A stretch of DNA of 48,142 bases. It comes from Methanobacteriota archaeon. GTDB taxonomy: Archaea; Thermoplasmatota; Thermoplasmata; Methanomassiliicoccales; UBA472. A model generated the notes under the pieces. The model was given only the letters and a program-made list of their open reading frames with translations. It was not told the origin of the DNA and did not search any database. Location: contig JAKPZB010000078.1 of the NCBI GenBank assembly GCA_029560215.1, positions 1-48,142 of the forward strand, in the 5' to 3' direction. This document shows, piece by piece, positions 1,264 through 28,507 of the stretch. Within the stretch, counting starts at the first letter, position 1, and each line of letters opens with the position of its first letter. The translations under genes and the position numbers were made by a program.

Positions 1264-2181
1264 TTAGCGGACCTTGCCCTCCACCTCGGCCTTGGTCTTG
1301 ATCCGGATGATGGTGCTGTCGCCCAGGCGGCAGTCGGAGATGGTGGCGATCTCCTTGAGCTTGCGACCGTAGACATCCAGCTCCTCCAGCTCCCTGACGT
1401 GCTCCTTGTAGGGGATCTTGACCCTGAGACCGTCCACGTGCAGCACCACCGGGGCCGGACGCAGGCACTCCTGCACCGCGTCCATCCCCTCCAGGGCGTC
1501 CTTGACCTCCGAAGGGTGGACGAAGAGGGGGTCCTCCTCGATCTCCTTGCGGCGCTTGTCGATGACCTCCTTGACCCGATCGGCGATCTCCTCGAGCTTG
1601 GCTATCTCCTCGGAGCGCCGCATGCGCTCCACCTTGCGGCCGACGCCGCAGACCAGGGCCTCGCAGTGAGGGAGCGATTCCAGCTCCGGACCCACCACGG
1701 TCACCACCGGGATCTGGATGTCCTTGTAGAGGTCGATCTTCTCGTGGGTGACGCATTCCTTGAAGTTGCCGAGCATGAAGATGGCCGCGTCGTACTCCTC
1801 GATTATGGCCTTCTCCGCCGCGGATATCTGACAGGTCTTACGTCCGCGTCCCCGCGCCAGGCCCATCACTATGGTGATGGCCCCGTACCGGCGCAGATGT
1901 TCCGCAATATCGCAGATGGGGTGGGGCATGTGATGCCTTCCCAGGGTGGGGCCGATGACCGCTATCTCGGTTCCCGCCAAGGGCACCTCGACGATCTTCC
2001 CGCCCAGTTCCGCCGTCTTCTTCTCGATGAGCGGCCGGTCCTCGGCCGGTATGGCTATGGTCAGGGTGACCATCACCTGCACCTGGGTGCGCTGGAGCAC
2101 GAAACCTCCCACGTCGGCTATCAGATCGAGCAGTTCGTCGATCTTGTGGACCCCGCCGTCGAACATCAGTACTTCGTACAT
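1264..2181 (-). CDS. mmp7: Methanogenesis marker protein 7
   Basis: About 305 aa. The N-terminus MYEVLMFDGGVHKIDELLDLIADVGGFVLQ is typical of Mmp7. Position is last in the mmp3-6-5-15-17-7 operon, with a 1-nt overlap with the mmp17 stop. Confidence 0.8.
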   Translation of the reverse strand: MYEVLMFDGGVHKIDELLDLIADVGGFVLQRTQVQVMVTLTIAIPAEDRPLIEKKTAELGGKIVEVPLAGTEIAVIGPTLGRHHMPHPICDIAEHLRRYGAITIVMGLARGRGRKTCQISAAEKAIIEEYDAAIFMLGNFKECVTHEKIDLYKDIQIPVVTVVGPELESLPHCEALVCGVGRKVERMRRSEEIAKLEEIADRVKEVIDKRRKEIEEDPLFVHPSEVKDALEGMDAVQECLRPAPVVLHVDGLRVKIPYKEHVRELEELDVYGRKLKEIATISDCRLGDSTIIRIKTKAEVEGKVR

Positions 2182-2753
2182 CAGTCATCCTCCGGGCCCT
2201 TGATCATGTTGGCGTGCACCCTCTTGGCCTCCTCGATGAAATCGACGGTCATGCCATGCTCCGTGGCCACGATGGTCATCACGTTGTCGTTGAAGTACTC
2301 GTTCCTCAGCTTGAGCCCCTCGGGCAGAAGCCGCCACATGGCATCGAGCAATTGCGAGCGCACCTCCTCCTCCGGGTCCAGCTTCATGTCCGCCAGCTCC
2401 TCCATCGGGACGTCCTCCACGAACACCTCCAGCCGGGTGAGCTGCTGCACGCGCTCCCTGCCGTAGAGGCGCCAGAGGCTGGAAATGAGCCTGGGAGCGT
2501 ATGATTCGTCCTTGATGGTGATGAACGTCCCGCCTTCCTTGGACTCCATCTCCGCTATGTCGTAGACCGGGCGCTTGCTCCCGGAATGCTTTATGCGCAT
2601 GGATATGATGAACAGCGTCTGGTCCGGGCGAATGACGAAACGCACCTTCTCGACCATGGTGCTTATCCCCATGTCCATGAGGATCCGTTCCAGCAGCCAT
2701 TGGTACGACTCCAGGGCGTATTGCTCGGTGCCCTCCAGCTCGAATTCCACCAA
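2181..2753 (-). CDS. mmp17: Methanogenesis marker protein 17
   Basis: 190 aa, between mmp15 and mmp7, with size and order as in the conserved marker cluster. TTG/GTG start 4 nt after the mmp15 stop. Confidence 0.7.
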   Translation of the reverse strand: MVEFELEGTEQYALESYQWLLERILMDMGISTMVEKVRFVIRPDQTLFIISMRIKHSGSKRPVYDIAEMESKEGGTFITIKDESYAPRLISSLWRLYGRERVQQLTRLEVFVEDVPMEELADMKLDPEEEVRSQLLDAMWRLLPEGLKLRNEYFNDNVMTIVATEHGMTVDFIEEAKRVHANMIKGPEDD

Positions 2754-2757
2754 TCTC

Positions 2758-3981
2758 TCACCCCAGCAGGCCGGAGGCCAGCAGCGCCGCTCCTACCGCC
2801 CCGATGTACTGCGAGTCCCTGGGGACGATGGGACGCTGGCCCAGGGTGTGCTCCATGGCCGTGACCATGCCGGATATCAGCGAGGTGCCGCCGACCTGGA
2901 TGATCGGGCGGCGCACCTCAATCTCCTGCAGCTGCTGCTCGTATATCTGCTCGGCCACGCTGTGGCAGGCCGCGGAGGCCACGTCCGCCAGGGTGTTCCC
3001 GGCGGCCAGCGACGTGACCAGGTCCTGTATTCCGAACACGGAGCAGTAGGAGTTCATCTTGACCTTGCCGTGGTCGCCCTGGTCCGCCAGAGCGCCCAGT
3101 TCCGTGATCTCCACCTTCAGGCGTTTGGCGGTCATCTCCAGGAAACGCCCGGAGGCGCCGGCGCAGATGCCGCCCATGGTGAAGTTGTCCGGGATGCCGT
3201 CCCGGACGGTGATGGCCTTGTTGTCCATCCCCCCGATGTCGATGATGGTGGCCTCCCCCTTCTGCTTGCCGGCCAGCCACACCGCTCCCTTGGAGTTGAC
3301 GGTGAGCTCCTCCTGCACCAGCTTGGCATTGAACTTCTTTCCTAGCGTGTACCGTCCGTAGCCGGTGGTTCCGATCCCCTCCAGCTGCTCATACTTCACA
3401 CCGGCCTCGGCCAGGGCGTTGGTGAGGGCGGTCTCCGCGGAAGAGTAGACGTCGCCAGTAGGCAGCCAGTACTTGCCGATGATGACGTTGTCGCGCATGA
3501 TCACCGCCTTGGTGGTGGAAGATCCTGAGTCCAGTCCGGCGGTGAGGCCGACCTGCCTCTCCCTGGCCAGAAGCTCCTTCCTCTCCACGATGGTCACCAG
3601 CGCTTCCATCCTTGTGAGAAGCTGGGCGGCCTTGGTCCGCTCCGTGAACGAGTAGGTGACCACCGGCAGCCTCACGTGCTCCTGCACGAACTTCCTGAGC
3701 TCCGTTCGGACGAGAGCTCCCTCGGCGCAGCGGAAGCAGGTGGCGATGAATATGGCGTCCGCGTCATAGTTCTTGTTGGCCAGCTCGATGGCCCGGGCGA
3801 TCATCAGCTTCAGCTGGGGGCTGTTGGGGTTGAACCCGAACTCCTCGACCGCCTTGTCGATCTTCTGCATGTCCACGTCCGGGTAGACCATCTTGGCCCC
3901 CACGGTCTCCGCGGCGCGCTCGATCTCCGCCTGTACGCCGCTGTACTCCGTCCCGCAGGAAAGTTGGGCGATCTTGATCAT
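2758..3981 (-). CDS. mmp15: Methanogenesis marker protein 15 (BadF/BcrA/HgdC-type ASKHA ATPase)
   Basis: 407 aa. ASKHA phosphate-1 motif [14 protein letters not shown] and a second DIGGMDNK motif. ATGA overlap with mmp5. Confidence 0.85.
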
Positions 3982-4412
3982 TTCAGACCCTCCAGGAACT
4001 CCTTCACCCTGACCACCATGTCCTTGGCCTCATCCTCGTTGGAGGGGTAGTCCAAAGATAGTATCGGCACCTTGCGCTTGCGGACCAGGAGCTTGGCCAG
4101 TTCGTTGGTCCGTTGGCATCCCACGCACCCGAAGCTGTAAGGGGCGTCCTCCATGAATATGGCCGCTTCCGCCTGGTCGATGAGGGGGCCGTAGATGGCC
4201 AATCTCCCGCGTATTCCGGAAGGGATCTCTATCCCGGCGTACTTCAACCCTAGCTTGACATCATCCACCGTCACGTTCAGAGGCGGCGCCTCGATCTCGT
4301 TCGACGTGACGCGGTCGCGGAGGGCCTTCATCAGGCTGAGCGGTTCGTGGCCGAACCTCTCGACCAGATCGAATAGGATCAGGCTGTTCGGCGGCATTAT
4401 GAATATCTTCAT
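3978..4412 (-). CDS. mmp5: Methanogenesis marker protein 5
   Basis: 144 aa, translationally coupled (ATGA) to both mmp6 and mmp15. Size and position match the marker cluster. Confidence 0.7.
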
Positions 4413-4834
4413 GGGGACACCTCGTCGATGAGCTTCTTAAGGTCGTTGACCGGGATCTTCTGGCGTTTCTTTGGCGCGGGGGGCTTCTCGCCCTTCTCCA
4501 CGCAGATCAGGCCCTGTTCCACCAGGCACAGGTCCTTCCATTCCTTCTCCAGTTGGGCGAACCCGGGCCGGGAGCCGTGATGGGCCCGGCAGCGGCGGAG
4601 ATCGCCCATGGGGAAGGCGCGGATCTTGGAAAAGATGCGGTTGGGGTCCATCTTGCGAACCTCGTCCAGGGTGCGCTTCACCGCGTCCCTGGGGCCCTGC
4701 AGCACCACGCCGTAGCAGGTCTCCTTCACCGTGACCTCGTTGCCCAGGTTGTGCACGAAGCGGGCGATGCGGTCCGGAGTGAGGTCGGAAGTGGGGGCGA
4801 TGAATATCAGCCTGGTCTCTATGTTGCTGTCCAT
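4409..4834 (-). CDS. mmp6: Methanogenesis marker protein 6
   Basis: 141 aa, immediately after mmp3 (1-nt gap), ATGA-coupled to mmp5. Confidence 0.7.
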   Translation of the reverse strand: MDSNIETRLIFIAPTSDLTPDRIARFVHNLGNEVTVKETCYGVVLQGPRDAVKRTLDEVRKMDPNRIFSKIRAFPMGDLRRCRAHHGSRPGFAQLEKEWKDLCLVEQGLICVEKGEKPPAPKKRQKIPVNDLKKLIDEVSP

Positions 4835-4835
4835 C

Positions 4836-6482
4836 TCAATCCTCCTTGGGCTTGGACCTTTTGGCCGGGGCCTTCTTGGCAGCGGTCGTCTTCGGCTTCT
4901 TTGGCGCTTCGGCGCCCTCCTTTGGCTTCCCAGCCTTCTTTGCCTTCTTGACCGCGGATTCCTCGGGAGTGGCGCGGCGGATGTAGATGATGTCCTCCTC
5001 GGATATCCCGGACATCATGGCGTCCAGGTCTCCGACGAAACGCCCGAGCAGGTTGGTGCCCGGGATCTCCTCGCCGGTGGGACCGAACTCCTCGCTCTCC
5101 TCCAGGCGTATTCCCATGAGACCGCGCTGCGGTCGGGACATGTTGGTTATCGCCACGTCGCCGCGGACCGAGCGACCTTCGAACGTCCTCTCCGGATAAA
5201 GGTCGGCGGCCAGCTTGGGATTCCCTTCGAAAGTTATCATGGGCATCCCCTCGAAGGTGAAGTGCACCTTCATGGTGCCCACCGGCTTGTGGTCCAAGCC
5301 GGTGACCTTGCGGAAGTAGCGCACCGTCCACGGCGAGGCCTCGGGGTCCATGGTGAGCGGGTACACCTTCTCCCTGGGAACGCCCATGGTCTCGATCTCC
5401 CTCTCCTTGGAGGCGTGGATGGTCATCTCCGGCTCCTGCTCGACGATCACCGCCTCGTCGGAGGTGTCGCCGGTGCGCTTCTGGACCTTGCCAATGGATT
5501 CCAGGAACCTCTGCGCCTCGGCCTGGGTCTTGCCGATGGTCATTATCCTTACGGGGTCCGGCTGAACCAGCACCCTCCCCTTGAGCGGGACCAGATGCAC
5601 CAGGTTGTGGCCGTTGGTGACCTTCCCCACGGTGTTGTGGGAACGGTTCAGCTGGCGGACCTGGTTGTAGAAGTATATCTTCCCGGCCTGGTAGCCCTCG
5701 TGCCTTACGGTCACCGTATCCGGGTGGCGCACCTCGCTGTATTCCTGGCCCAGGGAGGTGTCCATGTTGGCCTCGCTGGCCGAGTAGCTGAAACCCTTCT
5801 CGTCTATCGGCAGGCTGCCCTCGCCGGTGACCACCAGGAAGTGCTCGCAGCAGAGCGGCGAACGCTCGTCCAGCTTCACCCCCACGAAGGTCTCTATGAG
5901 CATGCCGTCCTCCACCGGCACGTTGAGGTCGGTTACCGGGAAGGCGTCCTGGGAGGTCATGCGCAGCACCACCGGCTCGATGTGCTCGATGACATCCCCC
6001 TCGTCGAGAAGGTCCAGGATGTGCCTTCCCCTGGTGACCCGGCCGAACACGGCGTCCTGAAGGCCGAGGTCGTCGCTCATGTCCACCCGGGCGATCATGA
6101 AGTAGGTGGTGTTCACGTCGTAACCGCCCAAGGCGAAGAAGCAATCGTAGCGCTTGTAAGTGGAAGTCCCGCGGGACTTCTCCAGCTGCGTCGGGAAGGA
6201 ACCGAAAGCATGCAGGCGGCTGGTCTGCCAACGCAGATTCCTTCCGACCACGTCGTGATACAGGCGTTTCCAGGCCTCGGCGAAGACGCTCCCGTTCAGT
6301 TCGATGATGAAGCAGCCACGGGGAGTTTTCACCATGTATTCGTTGGTCAGCTTGCGCTGGGCGTCCAGAGGTCGGATCAGGGCCACCGAGCTGCCTGGAA
6401 CATAGGGCTCTCCAACGATGGCCTGGGCCACCGTCGCCCCGTCGGGCAGTACCTTCTCCTTGCCGTTCACGATAGCTCTCAT
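4836..6482 (-). CDS. mmp3: Methanogenesis marker protein 3, with an extra Lys/Ala/Pro-rich C-terminal tail
   Basis: About 548 aa from Met11 of ORF 4836..6512 (MRAIVNGKEKVLPDG..., preceded by GAGGGGG). Length and N-terminus are typical of Mmp3 (UPF0288). First gene of the marker operon. Confidence 0.8.
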   Translation of the reverse strand: MRAIVNGKEKVLPDGATVAQAIVGEPYVPGSSVALIRPLDAQRKLTNEYMVKTPRGCFIIELNGSVFAEAWKRLYHDVVGRNLRWQTSRLHAFGSFPTQLEKSRGTSTYKRYDCFFALGGYDVNTTYFMIARVDMSDDLGLQDAVFGRVTRGRHILDLLDEGDVIEHIEPVVLRMTSQDAFPVTDLNVPVEDGMLIETFVGVKLDERSPLCCEHFLVVTGEGSLPIDEKGFSYSASEANMDTSLGQEYSEVRHPDTVTVRHEGYQAGKIYFYNQVRQLNRSHNTVGKVTNGHNLVHLVPLKGRVLVQPDPVRIMTIGKTQAEAQRFLESIGKVQKRTGDTSDEAVIVEQEPEMTIHASKEREIETMGVPREKVYPLTMDPEASPWTVRYFRKVTGLDHKPVGTMKVHFTFEGMPMITFEGNPKLAADLYPERTFEGRSVRGDVAITNMSRPQRGLMGIRLEESEEFGPTGEEIPGTNLLGRFVGDLDAMMSGISEEDIIYIRRATPEESAVKKAKKAGKPKEGAEAPKKPKTTAAKKAPAKRSKPKED

Positions 6483-6598
6483 CTTGTCCCCCTCATGGAT
6501 GCAGTGCGGCAATTATAAGGTTATTCCCGAGCCGTTCAATCTGGCTATGGCTTTCGACTACCCTTGGCCAAGCACCTCTTCCTTGGGCCGCAGGGGAT

Positions 6599-7201
6599 GT
6601 GCAAGTTATGAATAACCGCAAGTCGCTGAACCGTGGTATGGAAAGGAACGCCGTCCGCGGAGCGGTGCGCGAGAGGATACTGGAATTGAAGGGCATCGAG
6701 GTCCTGGAGTACCTTGACCAGGACTTCCGCCAGGAGATCGAGCGGAGGGAGCGCGAAGCGGAGGGGAACGGCGCGGTGGGCGGACTGATGGCCTTCGTGA
6801 ACTCCGGGGTATGGGACGTGCTAACCCGGCAGGAGGTCTTCGTCATCGTGGCCCAGCCCCAGATGGAGATCCTCCATCCCCAGGAGCACCTGGTGCACAT
6901 CGTGGACCAGCGGGGGCAGGTCATCGGCGAATATCTGCCGGAAGGAAAACGGGACGACGTGGAACTGAGGGAGAACGCCTACCTGCTGAGCGAGGACTTC
7001 GTCCTCTACGGCGATGTGGACATAGTCGGAGAGCCGTACTTCCTGATCCCGCCCATGACCTTTCCCCCCTTGGAGGGAATGTCCGGCATCAAGAGATTGG
7101 TCAGCGCCAGCATCTCCACGGCCTCCGACGACTACATCCGCGGCCGGTTGGGTTACGGGGACACCAAATGCTGGACCCATCTGGTCGGTTACGACCTCTA
7201 A
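6599..7201 (+). CDS. Protein I cannot place in a family; paralog of 13182..13724
   Basis: The C-terminal half aligns by eye with the other copy: VIGEYLPEG...EDFVLY...[19 protein letters not shown]...LVSAS...THLVGYDL versus VIGTEILPGE...DDFVVF...KEFFLMPPVSFPELEQVPG...IVSCS...SILVGFDLS. GTG start at 6599, or ATG at 6608/6638. Confidence 0.6.
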
Positions 7202-7803
7202 GGCATGGTCCGCTTGACCTTGGCCACTATCTCGTCCAGCTTGGTCTGGCTGACCGTGGTGCCGCGCACCACGCCGGTGACGATCTCCATGATGGTGCCT
7301 TTGGTGCCGATGTCCTCGTCCTTGGGCATGACCAAACGGGTCTTGCAGCCGATGCGGGCGAAGTCCTCGAAGTCCACCGGGGCCTGGCAGCAGATGACCG
7401 CCGGCAGGTCCACGTTCCTGAGGATCAACCTGGCCTTGTAGATGATGTGGTTGCGGACGTTTCCCAGGTGTATGAGAGCGACCTTGAACTGCTGGATGCG
7501 GGCAACCTCTATGGGCTCCAGTCCGAAAAGGGAGCTGGTGGAGACGTCCACCGCGTCGGAGGGCACGCCGGAACCGGCGGTGATGACGATGACCGAGGTG
7601 TCGATGCCCTCCTCCCTCAGACCGTAGGTGATCTCGCAGACCGGCTTGGTGATGTGGCGTTTCCCGGGACCCATGGCCACGGCCACCACGTCGCGCCCGC
7701 TGTCGGAGATGGTGGCCCTCTGGGCCAGGCTTCCGCCCACGCCCATCCCCCGGGCCTCTCGGCATTCCACGAAACGGGTCTTGCGGCCGATGGAGTCCTT
7801 CAA
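7198..7803 (-). CDS. mcrC: Methyl-coenzyme M reductase operon protein C
   Basis: 201 aa. [25 protein letters not shown] and [24 protein letters not shown] are characteristic of McrC. TTG start 2 nt after the atwA stop. Confidence 0.9.
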
Positions 7804-7805
7804 GG

Positions 7806-9428
7806 TCAGACCTCGCAGACGTCGGACTCGTCGCCTTCCAGGTCATCCTGGGTCATGCCCTTCAGGACCTCCTGGGGGGTTCCCAGCGCCACCATCTTGC
7901 CGCTCTTCATGAGCGCCACCCGGTCGCAGCAGGCCATTATGAAATCCATGTCATGACTGACGATGAGGAAGGTCTCGTTGAGCTCCTTGCGAGCGTGCAG
8001 TACTGACTTCGCCACGGCCTGACGGGTGATGGGGTCCATGGTGCCGGTCGGTTCGTCGAGAACCACGAAGCGCGGCTCGATGATCATGGTCCTGGCCAAC
8101 ACTATGCGTTGCTTCTCGCCCACGCTCAAGGCGTCCGGGTAGGCGTAGAGGATGCGCTCCACCTCCTTGGCGGTGAAGCCGACCCCGCGCATGACCTGGA
8201 TGGCCTTCATCTTGGCCAGTTCCTGCGGGAGCTTCATCCCCAGGCATACGGTCAGGTTCTGAAGGACGGTGTTGAACGGATAGAGCGCGTTCTCCTGGTG
8301 CATGATACCGATGTACTGGGTGGCGCGGCCTCTGCCCTCCTCTCCCAGATCGGACATGTTCACCCAGTCGTCGCCGATGCGGACAAGAACATCGCCATGT
8401 GTGGCCGGGGTGATGCCGGATATCATCCGGGATAGCGTGGTCTTGCCCGCCCCGCTCAGCCCGATCAGCCCGAATATCTCTTTTTCGTTGACATCGAAGG
8501 TGACGTCGTCCACCGCCTTCACCACGCCGCGGACGATGGAATAGAAGTATTTCTTGGCGCCTTCCACGCGGATGACCGGCTGTCCGACCTGGACGTCCAT
8601 GTCCTTGTCCCTGACGAAAGTGACGTTGAAGGCCTTGGTGACCTCGTGGGGGGCGCCCTCGGCCTTGATCATCCCGTCCTCCAACCAGATGGCCCTCTGG
8701 GAAAGAAGCTCGATGGCCTTGGGCCAGTGGGAGGTGACCACCATGGCCATGCCCGTGTCATTGACCGCTTTGATGAGCGCCTTGTGAACGGTATCCGCGG
8801 TCTCCGGGTCCAGGGTCCCGGTCGGTTCGTCGGCCAGGAACAGCAACGGCTCGCGGGCCAGCTGCCTGGCCAGCACGGTCCTCTGCTTCTCCCCTCCGGA
8901 GAGGTCGCGAGCGATGTGCATGGTGCGGTAGGTCATGTTGACCATCTCCAGCAACTTGATGGCCCGCTCCACCTTCTTCTCGTCGGAATTCTCCCTCATG
9001 GACTCGAAGACGTTCTCGATGACGCTGAGATCGCCGTACAGCGCGAAGGTCCTCTGGAGCATGATGGCTATGCGCCCGCGCATGGCCATCCTAAGGGGGT
9101 TCCGTTCATCCAGGGCCCAGAAGTCGATCTCCACGGTCTTGGTGCCCTTCCCGCACTGCGAGCACTTGGCCCCGGGCGACGGCATGTCTATCCAGCCGCA
9201 GGATTCGCAATGATTTACCCGATAGATGATGCGCCCGGAGTCGGGTTTGTACTCCTTGTTGCCGCGCATGGCATTGATGAGGACGGACTTGCCGCTCCCG
9301 CTCCTGCCGATGAGCCCGAGAACCTCGCCGGTGCGGACGGTGGTGCTGATGTCCTTGAGCACCTGGTGACCATTGAAGCTCTTGGATACCTTGTCCAATA
9401 TGACGAGAACCTCTGAACCCTCGGGCAT
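7806..9428 (-). CDS. atwA: MCR system component A2 (double ABC ATPase)
   Basis: Two ABC cassettes (Walker A GRSGSGKS and GLSGAGKT; signatures LSGGEKQ and LSVGEKQ) and a CxxC...CxxC insert (CESCGW...CSQCG). About 540 aa, adjacent to mcrC. ATG at 9428 preferred over TTG at 9440. Confidence 0.9.
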
Positions 9429-9516
9429 CCTGTTTGCCAACGATTATGGCAGATATAATACTTACCCTGTTTAGAATGCCTGGCTTTAACAATTGGATGG
9501 TGTAAGATATTTATGG

Positions 9517-9533
9517 ATGGATTATATATCCAT
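9517..9533. promoter_or_regulatory. Palindromic operator candidate ATGGAT-TATAT-ATCCAT in the atwA / wHTH-gene divergent intergenic region
   Basis: Sequence ATGGATGGATTATATATCCATCC at 9513-9535. The same 6-N5-6 palindrome is present at 18414-18434 and 39705-39752. Confidence 0.6.
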
Positions 9534-9539
9534 CCCACA

Positions 9540-10502
9540 ATGCCAATGTCCTTCAATTCCTACTTTGCCGGGGGCCCCACGCCAAAGTTCAACGCCTATC
9601 ACATTTGGAAGGCGCATCAGGTGGTGGCCAAGGAAGGCCCCATCGGCCGGAAGGCCTTGGCCGACCTTCTGCAGATCGGTGAAGGCAGCACCCGGACCAT
9701 CCTAGACAAGATGATGCGGGAGGGCTCCATAGAGAGCTCGCGCCTTGGCATAACCATAACCGAGCGCGGCAAGAGGAAGCTGGACAACTCCGGCGTTGAG
9801 GTCAGGCAGATCGACCTGTCCGATCTTACGCTGGGAAAGTACAACTGCGCCGTGCTCATCAAGGGCGCGGCGGAACGGGTGAACCTGGGCTGCGAGCAGC
9901 GGGACGAGGCGGTGCGGGCGGGAGCGATCGGGGCGACCACCCTGGTGGTCCACAATTCTCGGATCGTGTTCCCGGGGGACGAGGAGTTCCCGGACCAATC
10001 GCTGGTGGCCCCTTTGAGGAACTATTTCCGCATGGACGACGGCGACGTGATCATCATCGGCTCCGCCTTCAGCTATGAAGCGGCGGAGAAGGGCGCGGTG
10101 ACCGCCGCCCTTTCGCTCGGGAACCTTTCCCGCCGATGCTGGAACGAGGGCACGAACATCTTGAGCCAGGATACCGAGGCGGACGATCTCCGGTGCCTGG
10201 CCCTGGCCATTCACGAGCTTCTCGGCCGCCTACCGGTCACCATGCGCTCCAAGAACCACCCGGGCGTCCGATGCGAGGATGGCGAGGTCATCGACATTCA
10301 TTTCACCGGGCCCATGTTGGAGGAGTCCATGAAGAAGGGCATGGTCATACGCCGGACATCCACCAGCGGTCCGTACCGCGGATTGCCCATCATCGCCGTC
10401 CCCATCATGCGCAAGAAGGAGGCCATAGCCTCCATCGCCACCATGGACCTGGGGAAGGCCACGCCGTCGGAGCTGCTGAGCCGGTTGGCCGAGCGGTCCT
10501 AG
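9540..10502 (+). CDS. Winged-helix (wHTH) protein with a large C-terminal domain of unknown function; putative transcription regulator
   Basis: N-terminal GPIGRKALADLLQIGEGSTRTILDKMMREG looks like a wHTH recognition unit. My tentative recollection is DUF4443-type N-terminal and DUF2111-type C-terminal regions (unverified). Start moved to ATG 9540 because ATG 9513 lies inside the palindrome. Confidence 0.55.
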   Translation: MPMSFNSYFAGGPTPKFNAYHIWKAHQVVAKEGPIGRKALADLLQIGEGSTRTILDKMMREGSIESSRLGITITERGKRKLDNSGVEVRQIDLSDLTLGKYNCAVLIKGAAERVNLGCEQRDEAVRAGAIGATTLVVHNSRIVFPGDEEFPDQSLVAPLRNYFRMDDGDVIIIGSAFSYEAAEKGAVTAALSLGNLSRRCWNEGTNILSQDTEADDLRCLALAIHELLGRLPVTMRSKNHPGVRCEDGEVIDIHFTGPMLEESMKKGMVIRRTSTSGPYRGLPIIAVPIMRKKEAIASIATMDLGKATPSELLSRLAERS

Positions 10503-12331
10503 AAGTAGTACCAGATGCTGCGGTACCGCTCCGGGTCCTCGCCCCTCTCGGCCAGGGCGGCCAGGAAGTCCGCGATGGGAACGTCGCGGTGCACGTAGGT
10601 GGGGGCCACGGCGATGTTCTTCTCCCAGGGATGAAACTCATAGACCCTTTCGCCCCGGGGGGTCAGTGATATCAGGTCGTGATGCTGCCAGGCGCGCAAG
10701 TGGTTCTTTCCCAGGGCGGGAATGTTGAAGACCGGTTCGTCGGTCCGGCTGAGCCCGGGAAGCAGCCTGGCCTCTTCCTTCCGTTCCTGCAGCAGCCGGG
10801 CGATGGGCACCCGGTACTCGGCCGTCTCCTCCTTACCCTTGGCGTTGAAGGTGTAGTATGGGTCGATCCCGATCTCCTTCAGCGTCGAGCGCAGCGCCAC
10901 CGTCTCGAAGCGCCGGCAGTTCTCCATGGTGAAGACCTGCTGGTTGTACACGGATATGCCCAGTCGGCGCAGGTCGCGGACCGCGGCGGCCGCTTCCGGG
11001 GTGATCTCGTAAGGATGTTCGAAATGGGTGACCAGGGCCAATTCTCGCTTCGGGGGGTCCTGTACCTCCGCCAACCCCTCCAGGAAGCCGTGGTCGATCC
11101 TCATCGGCAGCACCGCCGGCACCCTGGTCCCCAGCCGCAGCCGTTTGATATGGGGAATGGCCGCCAGCCTTTTGAGGAGGCGACGTAACTGAGTGTTCGC
11201 CAGCATGGCGGGGTCCCCTCCGGTGATGAGCACCTCGCTGACCGCCGGATGCTCCTCGAACCACCGCAGCGCCGCCTCGATCTTCTCGGGAGGGGCCATG
11301 GCGTCCTCGGACAGGACGCCTTCGATCTCCCAGTTCCTCTGGCAGTAAACGCAGATCTGGGCGCAGGTGTTGTAAGGTTTGAATATGGCTATCATGGGAT
11401 AGCGCCTGGTAACCAGGTCCACTGGCGAGGTCTGGCCTTCCATCATGAAGTCCAGGCTGGCCGAGGGGTCCGACCTGGACCTGAGGACCGCTCGCACATA
11501 GCTCAGCGGGGGAATGACCTGGGCGCGCACGGCGTGGTCCCATTTCCGCGAGGGCTCCCGGTCCATGAGCGAGAGGTAGTACGGGGTGATGCCGAAGGGG
11601 ATGCGGTTCTCGGAACAGAGGGTTATCGCCTGGCGCTCCTTGTCGGTGAGCTCGATCAGGTCGCCGATCACGTCCGGGGTCAGCATGACATTCCTCATCT
11701 GCCACACATAATCGTTCCAGTCGTCCATGTCGGCGCCCAGGTATTCCGTTATCCGGTTGCGGTTCTCGCGCCGCCTTTGGATCGCCCAAGGTTCCAGTCC
11801 GCTGGGATACCTGACCGTCCATTCGGCCACCGCCCCCGCCATTCCGTCCAGGTAATCCGAGCGCACGCGTCCCCCTTCCTGACCGCCGAGCGCGGTGAAG
11901 TCCGGAGCCTCCTGAAGCTCCAGCACCGGTTCTCCGGTGGTGCCCCTCATGATGTGGATGATGTCCTGTACGAAGGCTTGGCTCGCGCCCTCAAGGGAAC
12001 CCTGGGAGATGTCGAATAGAACCTGGAGAACGGATTCGCCGCTCACTCTCTCGTTTCGGGGAGACAGGAAGTTGCGCATCACCCGGATGCAATGCAGGGA
12101 GTTGGACCGTTCCAGGGCGTGGATGCGGCAATCCCTGGAATGCAACGCGGATTCCCTTTCCCTTAGCAGATCGAACACCGCGGCACGGGCAGACCTTAGG
12201 TCCTCGGCGGGACCCAGCGCGTCATGCAGCTGGGGATCGGTCGCCCATAACACGGTCTGTCCGATATCCTTGTTCTCGCTCCCGCCCTCGGCGGAAGCTT
12301 TCGCTGGGGTTCTCGTGTTGCGCATGACCAT
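10499..12331 (-). CDS. KamA-family (lysine 2,3-aminomutase-like) radical SAM protein with an N-terminal extension of about 200 aa
   Basis: CAQICVYCQRNW (CX3CX2C), flanking ITGGDP and the PYYTFNAKGKEE region typical of KamA-like enzymes. 610 aa versus the roughly 400-450 aa I recall for the family. Confidence 0.7.
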   Translation of the reverse strand: MVMRNTRTPAKASAEGGSENKDIGQTVLWATDPQLHDALGPAEDLRSARAAVFDLLRERESALHSRDCRIHALERSNSLHCIRVMRNFLSPRNERVSGESVLQVLFDISQGSLEGASQAFVQDIIHIMRGTTGEPVLELQEAPDFTALGGQEGGRVRSDYLDGMAGAVAEWTVRYPSGLEPWAIQRRRENRNRITEYLGADMDDWNDYVWQMRNVMLTPDVIGDLIELTDKERQAITLCSENRIPFGITPYYLSLMDREPSRKWDHAVRAQVIPPLSYVRAVLRSRSDPSASLDFMMEGQTSPVDLVTRRYPMIAIFKPYNTCAQICVYCQRNWEIEGVLSEDAMAPPEKIEAALRWFEEHPAVSEVLITGGDPAMLANTQLRRLLKRLAAIPHIKRLRLGTRVPAVLPMRIDHGFLEGLAEVQDPPKRELALVTHFEHPYEITPEAAAAVRDLRRLGISVYNQQVFTMENCRRFETVALRSTLKEIGIDPYYTFNAKGKEETAEYRVPIARLLQERKEEARLLPGLSRTDEPVFNIPALGKNHLRAWQHHDLISLTPRGERVYEFHPWEKNIAVAPTYVHRDVPIADFLAALAERGEDPERYRSIWYYF

Positions 12332-12808: not shown

Positions 12809-13102
12809 TCATTCAGACAGCAGCTTGTCGATGGAGGGCATGCCGACCGCCGCGCTCGGTCCGGCCAGGTACATGGCCACGAACAGGGATTCCCGGATCT
12901 CGTCCTTGGTCGCCCCGGCCTCCATGGCCTTCTTGGCGTGCAACTTGAAGCATTCGTCGCATTTGAGCACGGCGGTGACGGCGATCGCGATGAGCTCCTT
13001 CTCCTTGAAGCTCAGCTTGTTGTCCTTGAAGACCTCGTTCTTGAAGCGATACATGGCGCGAATGACTTCGGGCTGCTGCTCGGCCATCTGTTCCAGGCTC
13101 AT
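12809..13102 (-). CDS. Carboxymuconolactone decarboxylase / AhpD-like family protein
   Basis: 97 aa. KEKELIAIAVTAVLKCDECFKLHAKKAMEAGATKDEI contains the CxxC and helix pattern of the CMD/AhpD family. Confidence 0.7.
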   Translation of the reverse strand: MSLEQMAEQQPEVIRAMYRFKNEVFKDNKLSFKEKELIAIAVTAVLKCDECFKLHAKKAMEAGATKDEIRESLFVAMYLAGPSAAVGMPSIDKLLSE

Positions 13103-13181: not shown

Positions 13182-13724
13182 GTGCAACCAGAGGAGAGAG
13201 CGGTCGAGATCATCAAAGGCATGACCGGCACCCGGCTGGCCTTCCTGCTCAGCCCGGAGGTCATCGCGGCTGTCCAGAGGATCGAGGACAGCATCAAGTC
13301 CCAGATAGGCCTGGACGTGGTGAACGAGGGGGTCAACCAGTGCCTCCGCAGGCAGCATGTCATCTGCGTGATCAAGGACACCCGATTCCGCCCTCCGCCC
13401 GAACCGACCGTCCTCATGATGGGCGACACGGACCTGGTCATCGGGACCGAGATCCTTCCCGGAGAGCATTCCCGATACAAGGAGATGGACAACATCTGCT
13501 GGCTGGGCGACGACTTCGTGGTCTTCACGGACAAGGTGCCCAAGTCCAAGGAGTTCTTCCTGATGCCCCCGGTATCGTTCCCGGAGCTGGAACAGGTCCC
13601 CGGAGCCACGAACATAGTGTCCTGCAGCCCTTCCCCGCTGGGGGACATGATCATCAAGAACTACTACGAGCTTGAGGACAACCCGAAGCTGGCCAGCATA
13701 TTGGTCGGCTTCGACCTGTCCTGA
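13182..13724 (+). CDS. Protein I cannot place in a family; paralog of 6599..7201
   Basis: See 6599..7201 for the alignment. Convergent with the end of the mcr operon. GTG start at 13182 or ATG at 13221. Confidence 0.6.
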   Translation: MQPEERAVEIIKGMTGTRLAFLLSPEVIAAVQRIEDSIKSQIGLDVVNEGVNQCLRRQHVICVIKDTRFRPPPEPTVLMMGDTDLVIGTEILPGEHSRYKEMDNICWLGDDFVVFTDKVPKSKEFFLMPPVSFPELEQVPGATNIVSCSPSPLGDMIIKNYYELEDNPKLASILVGFDLS

Positions 13725-13725
13725 T

Positions 13726-13790
13726 CTTTTTCCTTTTTACATTCGACCGCGGAAGGACGGTCGTCCACACATTTTTTTAAAAAAAGAGAG
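13726..13790. terminator. Bidirectional terminator between the mcr operon tail and 13182..13724
   Basis: T-runs (TCTTTTTCCTTTTT), hairpin CGACCG-N8-CGGTCG (13744-13763), then TTTTTTTAAAAAAA, which reads as a T7 run on both strands. Confidence 0.6.
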
Positions 13791-13819
13791 AAAAGGTAAA
13801 GGGTTTGTTCTTGGCGAAC

Positions 13820-14089
13820 TCAACCGCCCCCGCTCGGGGTGATGGTCGAGATGTCGGCCTCCACGTCCTTGGAGAGACCTTGCATCTGGCCCAGCACCAC
13901 CGTCCGGGTCCGCTCCTTGTAGGAGGTCCGCTTGTACTCGTCCGCCGAAGCGGGGTCCAGGAGACTGGTGACGTACCAGAGGCTGTAGGTGTCGAGCAGA
14001 GCCCATTCCATCCCGTCGCGCTCTCGCACTTCCAGTATCTTTCCCACCGTCCCGGTGACCCTGTACTTCGCGATATCTCCTACTTGCAT
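13820..14089 (-). CDS. Small conserved-looking protein (89 aa) downstream of mcrA, function unknown
   Basis: Starts 8 nt after the mcrA stop on the same strand and lies before the bidirectional terminator. The sequence MQVGDIAKYRVTGTVGKILEV...WALLD...LWYV suggests a small beta-barrel. Confidence 0.5.
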   Translation of the reverse strand: MQVGDIAKYRVTGTVGKILEVRERDGMEWALLDTYSLWYVTSLLDPASADEYKRTSYKERTRTVVLGQMQGLSKDVEADISTITPSGGG

Positions 14090-14097
14090 TGGACACC

Positions 14098-15762
14098 TTA
14101 CTTGGCGGGGATGATGGCGGTCCTCTCACCCATGGGCACGAACTCCCTGAGGCAGCCGCGACCGAACTCCTTGGTAATGTTCGCGAAGTCGAACGGGAGG
14201 TTCTTGTCGGCGAATGCGATCTTGATCAGGGGGCTGCACACGTAGGCGTCTCCGCGAGCCGCGTGGGGAGCCATGGCGATACCGGCGTATCCGCTCAGGT
14301 GACCCACGTTCATGGCGTAGTTCGGGAAGTTCGGACCGCGCAGCTCGTGCGGCAGACCCTCGTCGCTCCGGTAGGAGAACGAGTTGGACGCACCGCACAT
14401 GTCCTGCAGGTCGTATCCGTAGAACCCGAGCCTTCCGAGCCTCTCACGGTGCTGGTACATGGATAGGTACCAGGCATTGACACCCGCGTTGGCGTTACCA
14501 GTGGCCATGGCCACACCGATGCCGGTGGCGGCCGCAGCGACGGTCGCCCTCTGGGACCCACCGAAGTGGGCTTCCATGGCGGCCGGGTAGCGCTCGTACA
14601 TCTCCAGGGCGTAGGAGTTGATCTCGGACCCGAGCTTCTCGATCAGCTCAGTGGAGGGCTTGCTCTTGCAGAACCCGCCGTACTTGTCCTTGATGTGGTC
14701 CACGGCCCAGTAGGTGTAGTCCTCCAGGATGTCGTCGGTGTAGGCGGCGGTGGCGTACTGAGTGAACCCGACACCTCCGGACATGTAGGATCCGAGGTAT
14801 ATCTGGTCGAACACCACTGCACCCAAAGCGACAGTTTCCAGGGAGGCCCTGGCGGGGTCGTCCGGCTTGGTCCTGGTGCTCTGGACCATATCGGCCAGCA
14901 CACCGAACGGAATTCCACCGGGCTCGTTGGGGCCCCTGGCCCTCCTGGCGGGCATCATGGTACCCATCTCCACCACTGCGGCGTGCTTGGCGGCGAAGGC
15001 GAAGTCGGCGATCGCGGCTTCACCGGCGGCCAGCCGGTACGCGGTGATGAAGGCCATGGAGATCTGCATCGCAGAGTGCCTGGAGATCGTACCACCGTCG
15101 CACACGCGTCCGACGATGGACGGAACACGGACGACCTGCCACAGCTTCTTGCCGACAGCGGCCTTCAGCTGCTTGGCCTGGTCCGCGGGGAACTCCTTGT
15201 TGATGTCAATGACGAAGCACTTGTCGATCTCGTCGATCAGCTCGTCGTCGCCAGAGAACACCTTGACGTAGGAGTCCTTCACGATCTCAGGGCAAAGCTC
15301 GGCCATGTGCTCCTGAACCACTGCGCCGCCTGGCATGGTGTGGTTGACAGCTTCCAGGTAGCGGTTGATGGTCTCGGGGGTGACCTCCTTCGACAGCCTC
15401 TTCTCGATAACGTTGTGCGCGACATCCAGACCGACGATGACGGTCCTGCGGATATCATCCCAGGCCTGCTGCATCGCAGCGTTGTTGACCCAGTGCAGGT
15501 CATCGGCCTCGCCATAGATGTCCGTGTGGGACAGCTGGTAGGGCATCAAGACACGCTGGCCGAGAGCCACACCAATATCCTGGTTCATCATGGGGATCCC
15601 ACGGGCCTTGGCAATCTTGTTGGACTGCTCAACCCACTCCCGCTTCCTCTTCGACTGTCTCCAGCCTCCGTAGGAATAGTGCTTGGAGCGGACCTCCGTG
15701 GGGTCCTCCTTGAACTTCTTCTTCATGGCGGCGATGAACATCTTGTCCTTTTCCTTCGCCAT
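14098..15762 (-). CDS. mcrA: Methyl-coenzyme M reductase alpha subunit
   Basis: 554 aa with hallmark segments [32 protein letters not shown] and [17 protein letters not shown]. The sites corresponding to the modified His, Arg, Gln, Gly, Asp and Cys are all present. Confidence 0.98.
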
Positions 15763-15764
15763 AT

Positions 15765-16547
15765 TTAGTCCTCCTTAACATCGAAGGGCTTGAAGCCGCA
15801 CTTGGTCCTCAAGGTGTGGATCCTGAGGTTCTGCCTCATGACCTCCTCGTCCTCCCTCATGTCCACGCCGTCGGCGCGGAACATGGTGGTGTGCTCCTTC
15901 AACCACTTCTCGGGCATCGGCTTTCCGACCGCGACCGGCTTGTCCAGCGGGACACCGACCTGGTCCTTCACGTACTCGACCTCGCCCTTCTTCGCGTTCC
16001 ACCGGAACCTCTGCCAGGCGTCGAACATCATTCCGTTCTCGTCCAGCCTGACGGCGTGTCCGTGCACGGTCGCGCCTCTGATACCGGTTCTGGCGGTATC
16101 GAAGGTCTCGCCATCGATGAGTTCCTTGGCCACCTTTTCGACGTCCCTCTCCCTCATCTCGATGATCTGCCTTCCGGACAGGGTACCAGTGTCAATTCCC
16201 CGGTATCTGCACATGTACATCTGCGCCCTCACATACGGGACGATGGGGGCCCAGTACACGGAGTCAGTGAACTGAACGTACCTGATCCTGTCTCCCTTCT
16301 TCGCACCCTCCATGGGCTCGACCAAGGCCCGGATCGGGCAGTCGGGCTCGTTACCCTCGGCCAGCGGCGCGTGGATGGTGGCGTAGTCGGAACCGGGGAC
16401 ACGGTGTCCCAGGATCTTGACCACATCGTCCATCGGAATGTCGCGCAGCTTCTCCAGCTTGACGCTGGAGTCCATGAAGCGTCTGCGGTTCTTGGCGGGC
16501 AGGGTGTTGCCAGGATAGAGTTGTGCCTTGTACTTTGTCTTAGCCAT
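15765..16547 (-). CDS. mcrG: Methyl-coenzyme M reductase gamma subunit
   Basis: 260 aa. [21 protein letters not shown]...[19 protein letters not shown] is typical of McrG. Confidence 0.95.
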
Positions 16548-16548
16548 G

Positions 16549-16971
16549 TTATTTCACCAATCCTTTATTGTAGTCTGTAGTAGTTGGCTTGAACTTGTTG
16601 TAGCGACCTACCTCCAGAGTGAAACTGAAGGGTAGCACTTCCTTGCATACCTCCTCGATGTCCTTGAGAGCCTGGGGCACAAAGTCGATGTCGGCGATCT
16701 CGACGAAAACCCGACCGACCTGTATCTTAAGCTCTATGTCCTCCCCTCTGACCTTGATCTTCCTTCGTTCCGGATGGTTTACCGGACCGCCAGTGCCCGG
16801 ACCGGCCTTGATGACTGCGGGCAGGCCCTCGCCCTGGATGTTGATCTGCCTGACGTTCTTCACGGCGTACAGCTTGTTCAGCAGCACCTCCGTGGTGGAA
16901 GCCATCAGCAACCTCTCGGGGAATATCTGGATCTCGGGTAGGGGGACTCCCTCGAAGGCAGGCGTACTCAT
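16549..16971 (-). CDS. mcrD: MCR operon protein D
   Basis: 140 aa between mcrB and mcrG. IFPERLL...LLNKL...GEGLP...[18 protein letters not shown]...[14 protein letters not shown] matches McrD. Confidence 0.9.
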
Positions 16972-16973
16972 GT

Positions 16974-18302
16974 TCAGACCAGCTCCTTCAGTTTCTTGGC
17001 CTCCTTGCCTACCATCTTCATCGGGCTCTTGAACTCCGGGATCTCGCCGAAGATCTCCTTGAACACCAGGGAGGTGTTCTCAGCGCTGAAGTACTGGGTA
17101 CCAGCATCCAGAGCGCATCCGGCGGCGATGACGGGGATTACAGTGCCCTTCGCATGCCTAGTAACCACGTGGTTCCCGTGGAACAGTCCCGGACCGCCAC
17201 CACCATAGATGGAGTGGCTGAAGAAGGACATACCGACGGAAGTACCCATGGCCCTGCCGTAGTCTACACCGGGCAGGCTGGTCTCGTGCTCGATCAGGTC
17301 GTTGTAGTACAGAATGGTGGACGGAACACCCTGAGCGGCCCTTGCGGCGCCGATGTTCACGCAGATCGCGGCCAGCATACCAGCGGACACGTACGCGTTC
17401 CACAGCGGGAAGTCGTTGGTGGTGTACTCAACGAATCCGGAGGGGAACTTCTTTCCCTTCTTGATGACCTTGTCCTCTAAGGCCCTGCCGACAACGGAGG
17501 CAACGACGTCACCGACGGTGCCGGTCTTGCCGTTCTCCTTGACCCAGCTGTAGACCATGTTGTTGGCGTTCAGGCCCTGATAGGCCAGGGACAACAGGTG
17601 CTGCCTCTCGAAGTTGCCGATCGCGTCGCCCATCTCGTAGGCGGCGGCGGTCTCGTAGATAGAGGAGAGAGCGGCGGCGTTCATGGCGTTCCTGCCAGTC
17701 AGCATGACTAGGTGGTTGGCCATGATGTTCCTGAGGGCGTATCCAGTACCCTCGTTCAACTGCGGTACATCGAGAATGGTCTTAAGGTTGGACCCTTGCA
17801 TGTTGATGGTCTGCGGGTATCTGCCCCAGACGGCGGCCTTGACCATGGAAGCTTCGAACATGTTCACGTTGAACTGGTCGATGATTGCCTCGGTCACGGC
17901 GGCGGCAACGGTGGTGAACCCAGTGGTGTACTCGGCACCGGCGTCCATCCTGACGGACGGAACGGTGACGATCATCCTCTTGCCGTCAGCCATCGTCTCG
18001 ATCTTGGAGTCGTCGTCCTTGGCGGCCTTGACGATGTCAGCGATCCTCTTCTTCAACTTATCAGCGTTCGCCACGATAGCGAGGTCCAGGCTCCTGCCGG
18101 GAACATTCAATCCGCCAACCGCTCCGGTCTTGAGACCCTTCTCAATACCTTCGAGGTTGACAGCGATCGTTCTCTTCGTCAGAGAGATGGTTCGCTTAAT
18201 GGCGGCGTTGTTTAACGGACTCAATGCGTCGAGAGGCACGTCCTTTTCAATCAATTTGCCTCTGTCGTCATACAAGTCCACCTTGTCCTTGTATTTTGCC
18301 AT
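16974..18302 (-). CDS. mcrB: Methyl-coenzyme M reductase beta subunit
   Basis: 442 aa. N-terminus [30 protein letters not shown]. Strong Shine-Dalgarno element (GGAGGT) upstream. First gene of mcrBDGA. Confidence 0.95.
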
Positions 18303-18576: not shown

Positions 18577-19218
18577 TTATCGTTGTTCGCAAACGCCCTT
18601 AATGAATTTGAGGACGGTTATCGCGTCCTCCTTTTTAATATCTCGGTAATTCTCCGCAAAAAATCGGTCGAATGACTCGGCATTTTTATCGCCTACGATC
18701 CGTCGGGCCACCTCGCGGAACGCGGTCACCGTCCGGCGGGGATAGTAGATCGCGCGCATCTCGTTCATTATCCCGGCCCTCTGCTCGGCGTCGATGACGT
18801 CGGCCATCCACGCCTGGTCCAAAAGGATCCGCAGGTTCACCAGCGGTTCGGACAGCGGCTCCATGGTCTCCGGGTCGAACACCAACGCTACCTCGTCATC
18901 CCCCTGGACCTCGCCGTTGGCGTACATCCTGAAGATGTGTCCCACTCCGGTCATACCATAATGTCCCATCTCGGCCGCGCGCAGCGCGCCCATGCTCCCC
19001 CCGCCGATGACCTTCACCTTGCGGTTCAGGAGCGAAAGGATCTCCCGGTGCCCGACCGAGCAGCTCTGCAGGAAAACGCCGTCGATGATGCCGACCACCT
19101 CCACGCCTTCCAGATGCAGCAGGTCCCCCCTCTTCACCGGAGGACGGAAATCCGCGTCGAGCACTTCCCTGGCCTCGGACAGGGGAAGGCTCGGACCAAG
19201 GAACACCACCGGCCTCAT
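18577..19218 (-). CDS. tfuA: TfuA-like protein (partner of YcaO for McrA thioglycine formation)
   Basis: 213 aa. VFLGPSL...PPVKRGDL...VGIIDGVF...SVGHREIL...VIGGGSMGALRAAE is typical of TfuA. 4-nt overlap with ycaO. Confidence 0.9.
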   Translation of the reverse strand: MRPVVFLGPSLPLSEAREVLDADFRPPVKRGDLLHLEGVEVVGIIDGVFLQSCSVGHREILSLLNRKVKVIGGGSMGALRAAEMGHYGMTGVGHIFRMYANGEVQGDDEVALVFDPETMEPLSEPLVNLRILLDQAWMADVIDAEQRAGIMNEMRAIYYPRRTVTAFREVARRIVGDKNAESFDRFFAENYRDIKKEDAITVLKFIKGVCEQR

Positions 19219-20408: not shown

Positions 20409-20450
20409 GGGTGGGGAGAACCTCGGAGGAGTCAAAAAACTTTTGCGTGA

Positions 20451-28339: not shown

Positions 28340-28507
28340 GGATAACCTCGAGGGGAGGAATGCCATCGTCGGATTTATAATACTGTTCCCCTTCATCCCC
28401 CCGTCAGAAAGGTAGGCCAGCCTGCGGCCATGGTGGCGTTTATCGCGCCCCGCTCCGGGACAACGGAATTATACCTGAAAGGCCCTTAACGGCGCTAGTG
28501 TGATTAC

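Follow-up and report, generated by a model that had tools for sequence, protein, structure and literature searches.

Methyl-coenzyme M reductase (MCR), the activases RACo and RamA, and the methyltransferases of the MtrH, MtaA, pterin-binding and MtmBC types have in common methyl transfer on a metal-tetrapyrrole, which is either Ni-F430 or a Co-corrinoid. In these systems, an ATP-dependent reductive activase is required to hold the metal-tetrapyrrole in the +1 state or to restore it to that state (PMC12176620 for MCR). The MCR activation complex of Methanococcus maripaludis comprises McrC, Mmp7, Mmp17, Mmp3, A2, and DUF2098 (Ramirez-Amador et al. 2025, PMC12176620); DUF2098 was co-purified with McrC, and a loop of McrC binds DUF2098. 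All six proteins are encoded in the stretch of DNA analysed here, a contig of 48,142 nucleotides (JAKPZB010000078.1 of assembly GCA_029560215.1; hereafter, the window) from an archaeon of the Methanomassiliicoccales (UBA472). The window also contains two genes of an unnamed family, each located beside genes for MCR or its activation:

6599..7201, plus strand: copy 1, a member of the unnamed family; the mechanical open reading frame (ORF) has 200 codons from GTG 6599
13182..13724, plus strand: copy 2, 180 aa, a paralog of copy 1; its GTG start aligns with the Met of the homologs

An earlier note on this DNA had proposed a functional link of both genes with MCR. Here it is proposed, with a probability of roughly 0.4, that the family is functionally linked in general to methyl-transfer enzymes that depend on a tetrapyrrole, of which MCR would be one lineage-specific case, because the family reaches genomes without mcr and has corrinoid methyltransferase and activase genes as recurrent neighbours. 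From the earlier proposal, the linkage to MCR genes stands and is conserved across the order Methanomassiliicoccales; outside the mcr island, the recurrent neighbours are corrinoid methyltransferase and activase genes.

The two paralogs and their family

Both ORFs are present in the window at the coordinates and sizes that the earlier note had given. The two proteins are paralogs, with a BLASTP E-value of 2e-16 and 32% identity across 135 aa, and after addition of their homologs, the copy 1 and copy 2 families can be aligned over essentially their full length, extending the similarity well past the C-terminal half in which it had been noticed before. Residues G32, E51, N68, G70, G110, F134, F155, S171, D177, and G197 (copy 1 numbering) are invariant across the joint alignment, and the near-invariant polar residues among members that are ~25% identical are E35, N48, and D155, plus R57 (copy 2 numbering). 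No conserved Cys or His was found in the family alignments. Conservation among the homologs shows copy 1 and copy 2 to be real genes under purifying selection. A crude neighbor-joining tree contains a copy 1 clade, with a Methanofastidiosum protein as its neighbour, a copy 2 clade, which includes additional Methanomassiliicoccales paralogs, and a clade of other archaea and bacteria; because the two copies fall in separate clades, they are old paralogs rather than the product of a local duplication.

In a collection of 5.8 billion proteins, copy 1 has 66 relatives at E<=1e-3, the most distant having 44% identity, and all of those with names are Methanomassiliicoccales; copy 2 has 403 relatives in the same collection. 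The joint profile, run exhaustively by HMMER against 1.84 billion cluster representatives, retrieved 399 clusters (50% identity) at E<=1e-3, including 280 at E<=1e-10. Only a minority of the members carry organism names. These include Candidatus (Ca.) Kariarchaeaceae (Asgard), Methanofastidiosum, Ca. Bathyarchaeia, more paralogs of Methanomethylophilaceae, and, among the Bacteria, three metagenome-assembled genomes (MAGs) of Desulfobacterales. Within this named minority, Methanofastidiosum is the only representative of methanogen orders beyond the Methanomassiliicoccales. The members in Bathyarchaeia, Kariarchaeaceae, and Desulfobacterales give a negative answer to the earlier question of whether the family is restricted to mcr-containing genomes, and they also set it apart from the methanogenesis markers, defined by their occurrence in all methanogens and in no non-methanogens (Kaster 2011; Borrel 2014).

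The search for a known family gave consistent negatives. Neither copy matched Pfam-A 2025, nor any NCBIfam 20.0 model at E<=0.01, while the neighbouring genes matched their own models strongly; this includes the methanogenesis marker models TIGR03264-TIGR03291 (McrC, A2, Mmp1, 3, 5, 6, 7, 15, 17, and others). A Pfam search over 80 diverse members (E<=0.01) found no family in common, only three unrelated single matches, and an NCBIfam search over 46 distant members found no consistent family, its sole match being that of one member to HI0074 (E=9e-4). No fused domain was found in 10 unusually long members. Against PDB sequences, the profile designated A1 had its best match at E=0.19, with unrelated proteins, and the profile designated A2 had none at E<=1. 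Comparison by hhalign of an 80-sequence family alignment with 13 neighbouring families of the island gave a probability of <=1% for each. These families include Mmp3, 5, 6, 15, and 17, DUF2111, DUF6951, McrG, TfuA, and DUF123, as well as the McrC/Mmp7 family (PF04609; no Pfam match, hhalign 0.2-0.3%) and McrD (TIGR03260; no NCBIfam match, hhalign 1.0%). The copies were, on these probabilities, rejected as diverged paralogs of Mmp proteins, McrC, or McrD; neither of them matches DUF2098 (PF09871).

The structures predicted by AlphaFold2 (AF2) are confident for copy 1 (pLDDT 88.2, pTM 0.82, with low confidence at residues 1-10) and for copy 2 (pLDDT 96.6, pTM 0.90). The two models have the same order of secondary structure elements: the N-terminal half is made of helices and strands, and the C-terminal half is rich in strands. 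With a shared fold defined as Foldseek E<=1e-3 or TM>0.5 against PDB structures, no significant match was obtained by the structure prediction that the earlier note had recommended, since the best E-value was 0.65 for the copy 1 model and 0.2 for the copy 2 model (TM <=0.38). The same Foldseek search against the PDB revealed no similarity to B12-binding domains or to a known tetrapyrrole-binding fold, and no nucleotide- or cofactor-binding motif was recognised in the family. A description of the family was not found in the literature, searched by topic and by the accessions of neighbouring genes in M. luminyensis and Ca. M. intestinalis. As the earlier note had anticipated in finding no named family for the two proteins, family and fold are apparently new when compared with Pfam-A 2025, NCBIfam 20.0, the PDB at the level of both sequence and fold, and the literature that could be searched; this novelty concerns the family and the fold, and not a demonstrated mechanism.

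Gene neighbourhoods of the family

The linkage to MCR genes was analysed by scanning one genome per GTDB species with the alignment of the copy 2 subfamily, and the gene order around the best 80 of 220 relatives was determined by tblastn with the proteins of the window. All of these 80 loci are from Methanomassiliicoccales, and their gene order matches that of the window throughout. The mcrA gene is convergent with copy 2 at a distance of <=4 kb in 46 of 53 informative loci; a DUF6951 gene is directly upstream of copy 2 in 62 of 71 and a gene for a DUF2111 protein is upstream in 56 of 62, again counting informative loci, while a divergent CMD gene is present in 58 of the 80 loci and DUF2098 in 71 of the 80. 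Of 45 informative loci, 23 have copy 1 in the interval from mmp3 to mcrC; in those without it, which are mostly MAGs labelled Methanomethylophilaceae, mmp3 and mcrC abut (20/22). The accession numbering of Borrel et al. 2014 is consistent with this pattern of presence and absence, as it places a single gene between mcrC and mmp3 in both M. luminyensis and Ca. M. intestinalis, while Ca. M. alvus has no gene there. Where present in the Methanomassiliicoccales, each copy forms a one-gene unit inserted antisense into the MCR island. The linkage of copy 2 extends over the whole order and that of copy 1 over a clade, and it is not the peculiarity of a single genome that the earlier note had considered as evidence against its proposal. 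Four of the loci carry bacterial names (L063, Dialister hominis; L072, Bacteroidaceae; L076, Firmicutes CAG:194; L077, Lachnospiraceae) although their full mcr/mmp islands are of the Methanomethylophilaceae type, a sign of bin contamination in those GTDB representative assemblies.

Outside the mcr island, a metagenome scan with the non-Methanomassiliicoccales subgroup provided 80 further loci, in which the neighbours were clustered de novo and their representatives annotated with Pfam. The recurrent neighbours are activases and corrinoid-related methyltransferases, in several arrangements. An extra Methanomassiliicoccales paralog is encoded between a RamA-like activase with DUF1638 and a URO-D/MtaA gene (L054), and in two loci RACo is divergent from the member, which is followed by TBP (L056, also an extra Methanomassiliicoccales paralog, and L089). 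About 30 loci have xanthine-dehydrogenase-like genes with MtrH, the member, and an MFS transporter in this order, and in 15 Desulfobacterales-like loci a spermine-synthase-like gene precedes the member, which converges on RACo and a pterin-binding methyltransferase. Further arrangements place the member with MtrH and RACo, with a pterin methyltransferase, or with URO-D; one locus has RACo-MtmB-MtmC-x-TrmB-URO-D followed by the member and MFS (L176), and in another (L084) the member precedes URO-D, while cobW and a further URO-D are close by. In ~10 of 14 member clusters (60% identity), RACo, MtrH, a pterin methyltransferase, or URO-D is found <=2 genes away. Genes of these four types account for 59 of 281 genes at +-2 positions and for none of 308 at >=4 positions, uncorrected for relatedness.

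Some of these loci have particular gene content. The gene before the Desulfobacterales members (L116, L141, L155, and relatives; P0406-P0408) is always a spermine-synthase/MFS fusion, and these members converge on RACo with a methyltransferase of the CdhD/AcsE-like pterin-binding type. Many loci (L086, L087, L105-L131) have subunits of a Mo enzyme (xanthine-dehydrogenase-like), MtrH, the member, an MFS transporter, DUF3788, and XdhC, a cluster that looks like an uncharacterised catabolic methyl-transfer module. A third, very divergent Methanomethylophilaceae paralog overlaps tail-to-tail with DUF2284 or NikR (L170, L171, L174, L175) and has cobW, a Mur-ligase-like gene, and HypA/HypD in its vicinity; the theme of these loci is nickel, not corrinoid.

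The methanogenesis island of the window

The window has ~60% GC with long ORFs on both strands, and a complete methanogenesis island of Methanomassiliicoccales was identified in it with NCBIfam and Pfam. The features around the two copies are the following:

1264-2181, minus strand: mmp7 (NCBIfam methan_mark_7)
2181-2753, minus strand: mmp17 (NCBIfam methan_mark_17)
2758-3981, minus strand: mmp15 (NCBIfam methan_mark_15)
3978-4412, minus strand: mmp5 (NCBIfam methan_mark_5)
4409-4834, minus strand: mmp6 (NCBIfam methan_mark_6)
4836-6512, minus strand: mmp3 (TIGR03268, E=5.8e-127), first gene of the unit mmp3-mmp6-mmp5-mmp15-mmp17-mmp7
6483..6637, no strand: divergent intergenic region between mmp3 and copy 1, with TTATAA at ~6514-6519 and AAGTTATGAATAA at 6603-6615
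7198-7803, minus strand: mcrC (TIGR03264, E=4.6e-88)
7806-9440, minus strand: atwA, MCR activation component A2, a double ABC ATPase (TIGR03269, E=2.6e-222)
9513-10502, plus strand: protein with winged helix, DUF4443, and DUF2111, conserved neighbour upstream of copy 2
10499-12331, minus strand: KamA-family radical SAM protein, 610 aa, with an aminomutase-like core and an N-terminal extension of ~190 aa
12449-12808, plus strand: Cys-containing DUF6951 protein, conserved neighbour upstream of copy 2
12809-13102, minus strand: CMD/AhpD-like protein, 97 aa, with a CDEC motif (Pfam PF02627, E=8.1e-20)
13725..13819, no strand: convergent spacer between copy 2 and the DUF2098 gene, 95 nt, T-rich, with oligo-T/oligo-A tracts on both strands (TCTTTTTCCTTTTT, TTTTTTTAAAAAAA)
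13820..14089, minus strand: DUF2098 gene, 89 aa, last gene after mcrA (Pfam PF09871, E=3.4e-15)
14098-15762, minus strand: mcrA (NCBIfam equivalog)
15765-16547, minus strand: mcrG (NCBIfam equivalog)
16549-16971, minus strand: mcrD (NCBIfam equivalog)
16974-18302, minus strand: mcrB (NCBIfam equivalog)
18577-19218, minus strand: tfuA, MCR modification gene
19215-20435, minus strand: ycaO, MCR modification gene

Copy 1 is a monocistronic unit that diverges from mmp3 and converges on mcrC; the latter forms one shared unit with atwA, located upstream of it. The stop codon TAA of copy 1 (7199-7201) and the stop of mcrC (CTA on the plus strand, 7198-7200) form a tail-to-tail overlap of 4 nt; in both this overlap and the facing starts of copy 1 and mmp3, the earlier reading of the sequence was accurate. 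Most homologs of copy 1 are 197 or 187 aa long, and conservation in the alignment starts at Met14; in addition, the AT-rich box AAGTTATGAATAA at 6603-6615, as read from the sequence, is about 25-35 nt 5' of ATG 6638. Because of the N-termini of the homologs and this box, ATG 6638 (187 aa) is suggested as the true start, less likely ATG 6608 (197 aa), and not GTG 6599. On the other side, the TIGR03268 match to mmp3 begins at residue 14 of the mechanical ORF, and there is an ATG at 6482, which is probably the mmp3 start, with TTATAA ~32-37 nt upstream. TTATAA and AAGTTATGAATAA can be taken as putative promoter elements of mmp3 and copy 1, respectively.

Copy 2 is likewise a monocistronic unit; it diverges from the CMD gene and converges on DUF2098-mcrA. 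The earlier note had described it as converging on the tail of mcrBDGA; the convergent orientation is correct, and the partner is the DUF2098 gene after mcrA, so that mcrA itself is not abutted. In the mechanical ORF list, the DUF2098 gene was hidden by a longer ORF of 130 aa, 13737-14129(-), which was rejected as a low-complexity wrong frame over this gene, the 89-aa frame being the one that matches PF09871. The spacer 13725..13819 is a plausible candidate for a bidirectional archaeal terminator region. Borrel et al. 2014 noted an 'SH3 fold protein' (arCOG04846) beside mcrA, and the DUF2098 gene (13820-14089) is probably this protein; copy 2 was rejected as its equivalent, given that the description suits the 89-aa gene and that the gene order of Ca. 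M. alvus puts the 'SH3 fold protein' between ycaO and mcrA. The genes of two interacting partners of the activation complex are thereby each tail-to-tail with a paralog, mcrC with copy 1 and DUF2098 with copy 2, a placement that may be meaningful or coincidental.

Other genes of the window also deserve mention. The winged-helix protein with DUF4443 and DUF2111 is transcription-factor-like and lies inside the MCR island; like DUF6951, it is uncharacterised. The KamA-family gene sits between the genes for these two proteins and was found by tblastn only in close relatives of the window, in 11 of the 12 loci L001-L012 (not in L010); a lineage-specific MCR modification enzyme is a possible function for its product. 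The CMD/AhpD-like gene with its CDEC (CxxC) motif is a redox-type neighbour that is kept divergent from copy 2. At 11-15 kb from copy 2, the window encodes MtrA-like (24190-24963, +) and MtrH-like (24965-25849, +) proteins, as well as a RamA-type activase (26690-28396, -) with RACo middle and C-terminal domains and a 2x[4Fe-4S] domain; Methanomassiliicoccales have been described as having no Mtr complex (Borrel 2014).

Proposed role and comparison with known systems

The family is proposed to consist of soluble mixed alpha/beta proteins of ~180-200 aa that would act as non-catalytic adaptors or holding chaperones. Their clients would be methyl-transfer enzymes whose Co-corrinoid or Ni-F430 needs ATP-driven reductive activation, and the family protein would bind either the cofactor-bearing enzyme or its activase and aid their docking. 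In Methanomassiliicoccales, two paralogs may have been recruited to MCR; the partner of copy 1 would be the McrC/A2/Mmp activation machinery and that of copy 2 MCR/DUF2098. As the conserved residues are only Gly, Phe, Glu, Asn, and Asp, with no Cys or His, an electron-transfer or metal-binding role is unlikely and a binding role is favoured. The functional link rests on gene neighbourhood, and the adaptor mechanism is less certain than the link.

Several observations weigh against this proposal. The activation complex of M. maripaludis functions without such a protein (PMC12176620), and copy 1 is missing from about half of the Methanomassiliicoccales loci. A group of 14 loci has LplA upstream of the member with HAD adjoining, and no corrinoid or MCR neighbour; the same absence applies to Methanofastidiosum, with the order asd, member, CbiQ, and to the Methanomethylophilaceae paralog beside DUF2284/NikR, and in one further locus (L067) the member is beside topoisomerase VI. 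The locus counts are not phylogenetically independent, many metagenome loci being from related samples, and the gene calls in the fetched loci are crude, consisting of the longest non-overlapping ORFs. Also, the invariant Glu, Asn, and Asp could as well mark a catalytic site.

A more specific version of the proposed link, which is tentative and on the doubtful side, is that the family is a new-fold accessory subunit common to the two known kinds of ATP-driven reductive activation, by RACo/RamA for Co-corrinoid proteins and by McrC-Mmp-A2 for Ni-F430 MCR, and would dock the inactive enzyme onto its activase. MCR activation in Methanomassiliicoccales would in this case depend on one or two additional, lineage-specific subunits, which the Methanococcus complex lacks.

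An unlikely alternative is that the protein is a carrier or insertion chaperone for corrinoid, F430, Co, or Ni, supplying apo-methyltransferases or apo-MCR rather than taking part in reductive activation. The metal-tetrapyrrole is common to MCR and the corrinoid enzymes, CbiQ is directly downstream of the member in Methanofastidiosum, cobW is near members in three loci (L084, L170, L175), and NikR and DUF2284 are convergent with the third Methanomethylophilaceae paralog, with HypA/HypD and the Mur-ligase-like gene near. However, a carrier of this type would be one with no conserved Cys, His, or Met as metal ligand and no likeness to B12-binding domains or known tetrapyrrole-binding folds, and the commonest neighbours of the family are activases and methyltransferases, not genes for biosynthesis or transport.

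Slightly less probable is the absence of any specific link, with the family being a general-purpose protein such as a regulator or a stress protein, its synteny inherited in one order and its other associations due to chance or hitch-hiking. The contexts are indeed heterogeneous (LplA/HAD, asd, topoisomerase, exonuclease VII), synteny within a single order is weak evidence alone, and half of the loci do without copy 1. Against this, the association with RACo and methyltransferases recurs in differing gene orders and orientations, in distant clades of the family tree, and in Archaea as well as Bacteria, its 59 occurrences among 281 near genes compare with 0 among 308 distant genes, and two paralogs were independently fixed beside MCR activation genes.

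Marginally less probable again is an enzyme whose invariant Glu, Asn, and Asp would act, for example in modification or repair, on some small molecule or protein side chain that the pathways share. E35, N48, D155, and R57 are near-invariant even among members of ~25% identity, the island also holds the MCR modification genes tfuA and ycaO, and the Foldseek likeness to the flavin/F420-binding nitroreductase fold, which is non-significant (TM 0.35-0.38, E>=0.2), would fit an enzyme; by contrast, no enzyme family was matched by sequence or fold, and no nucleotide- or cofactor-binding motif was recognised. MCR and corrinoid proteins are not known to share a modification.

Finally, that the two copies are chance antisense ORFs, as a window of ~60% GC with many long spurious ORFs on both strands and the spurious ORF 13737-14129 nearby might suggest, is already refuted by the conservation data, with hundreds of homologs down to ~25% identity that conserve length and motifs, and is further opposed by the very confident AF2 models and by the location of both copies in otherwise empty intergenic space between annotated genes.

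The assembly and reductive activation of MCR are a central open problem of methane biology, and the first structure of an activation complex dates from 2025 and is from one model methanogen only. The principal methyl-reducing methanogens in the guts of animals belong to the Methanomassiliicoccales, which are also targeted for methane mitigation. The order-wide pair beside mcrC/A2 and DUF2098/mcrA offers testable candidates for lineage-specific activation or assembly factors. If the link is functional, the RACo/RamA and corrinoid-methyltransferase neighbours of the relatives in Bathyarchaeia, Asgard archaea, and sulfate-reducer-type bacteria would connect two activation systems that so far have been handled separately, and several hundred sequence clusters without annotation, apparently also without a solved fold, would gain a role.

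The likeness of the family to described proteins varies in kind. The best Foldseek matches of the copy 2 model, several of them within the top 35, are flavin/F420-binding domains of the nitroreductase fold, such as the C-terminal domain of FbiB (PDB 4xom), with E>=0.2, TM 0.33-0.38, and rmsd ~10-12 A, and none was obtained for copy 1; this likeness was rejected as evidence, because E and TM do not reach the thresholds of a shared fold and it was not seen for copy 1. DUF1638 and DUF2284 are, similarly to the family, small and uncharacterised and occur in corrinoid or nickel clusters, where DUF1638 adjoins a member (L054) and DUF2284 is convergent with members (L170, L175); however, both are distinct Pfam families that neither copy matches.

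RACo/RamA, the commonest type of neighbour of the members outside the mcr island, are a conceptual parallel to the McrC/A2/Mmp genes beside copy 1. The family differs from them in having neither the ASKHA ATPase domain, nor the Fe-S motif, nor any relation in sequence, and would be at most a partner of the activase and not the activase itself. DUF2098 is also a small protein of unassigned function that is tied to McrC, and copy 2 is tail-to-tail with its gene, as copy 1 is with that of its binding partner, mcrC; in contrast, DUF2098 has ~90 aa and probably corresponds to the 'SH3 fold protein', whereas the AF2 models of the family have ~180-200 aa and a mixed alpha/beta fold.

McrD differs from the family in the lack of homology (hhalign 1%), in having its own gene in the window (16549-16971), and in distribution, since the family extends to non-methanogens and bacteria, whereas McrD is not known outside mcr operons. 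Like copy 2, McrD is a small soluble protein with no cofactor motifs that is encoded with the mcr genes, and as a proposed assembly chaperone of MCR, it is the closest functional analogy for copy 2.

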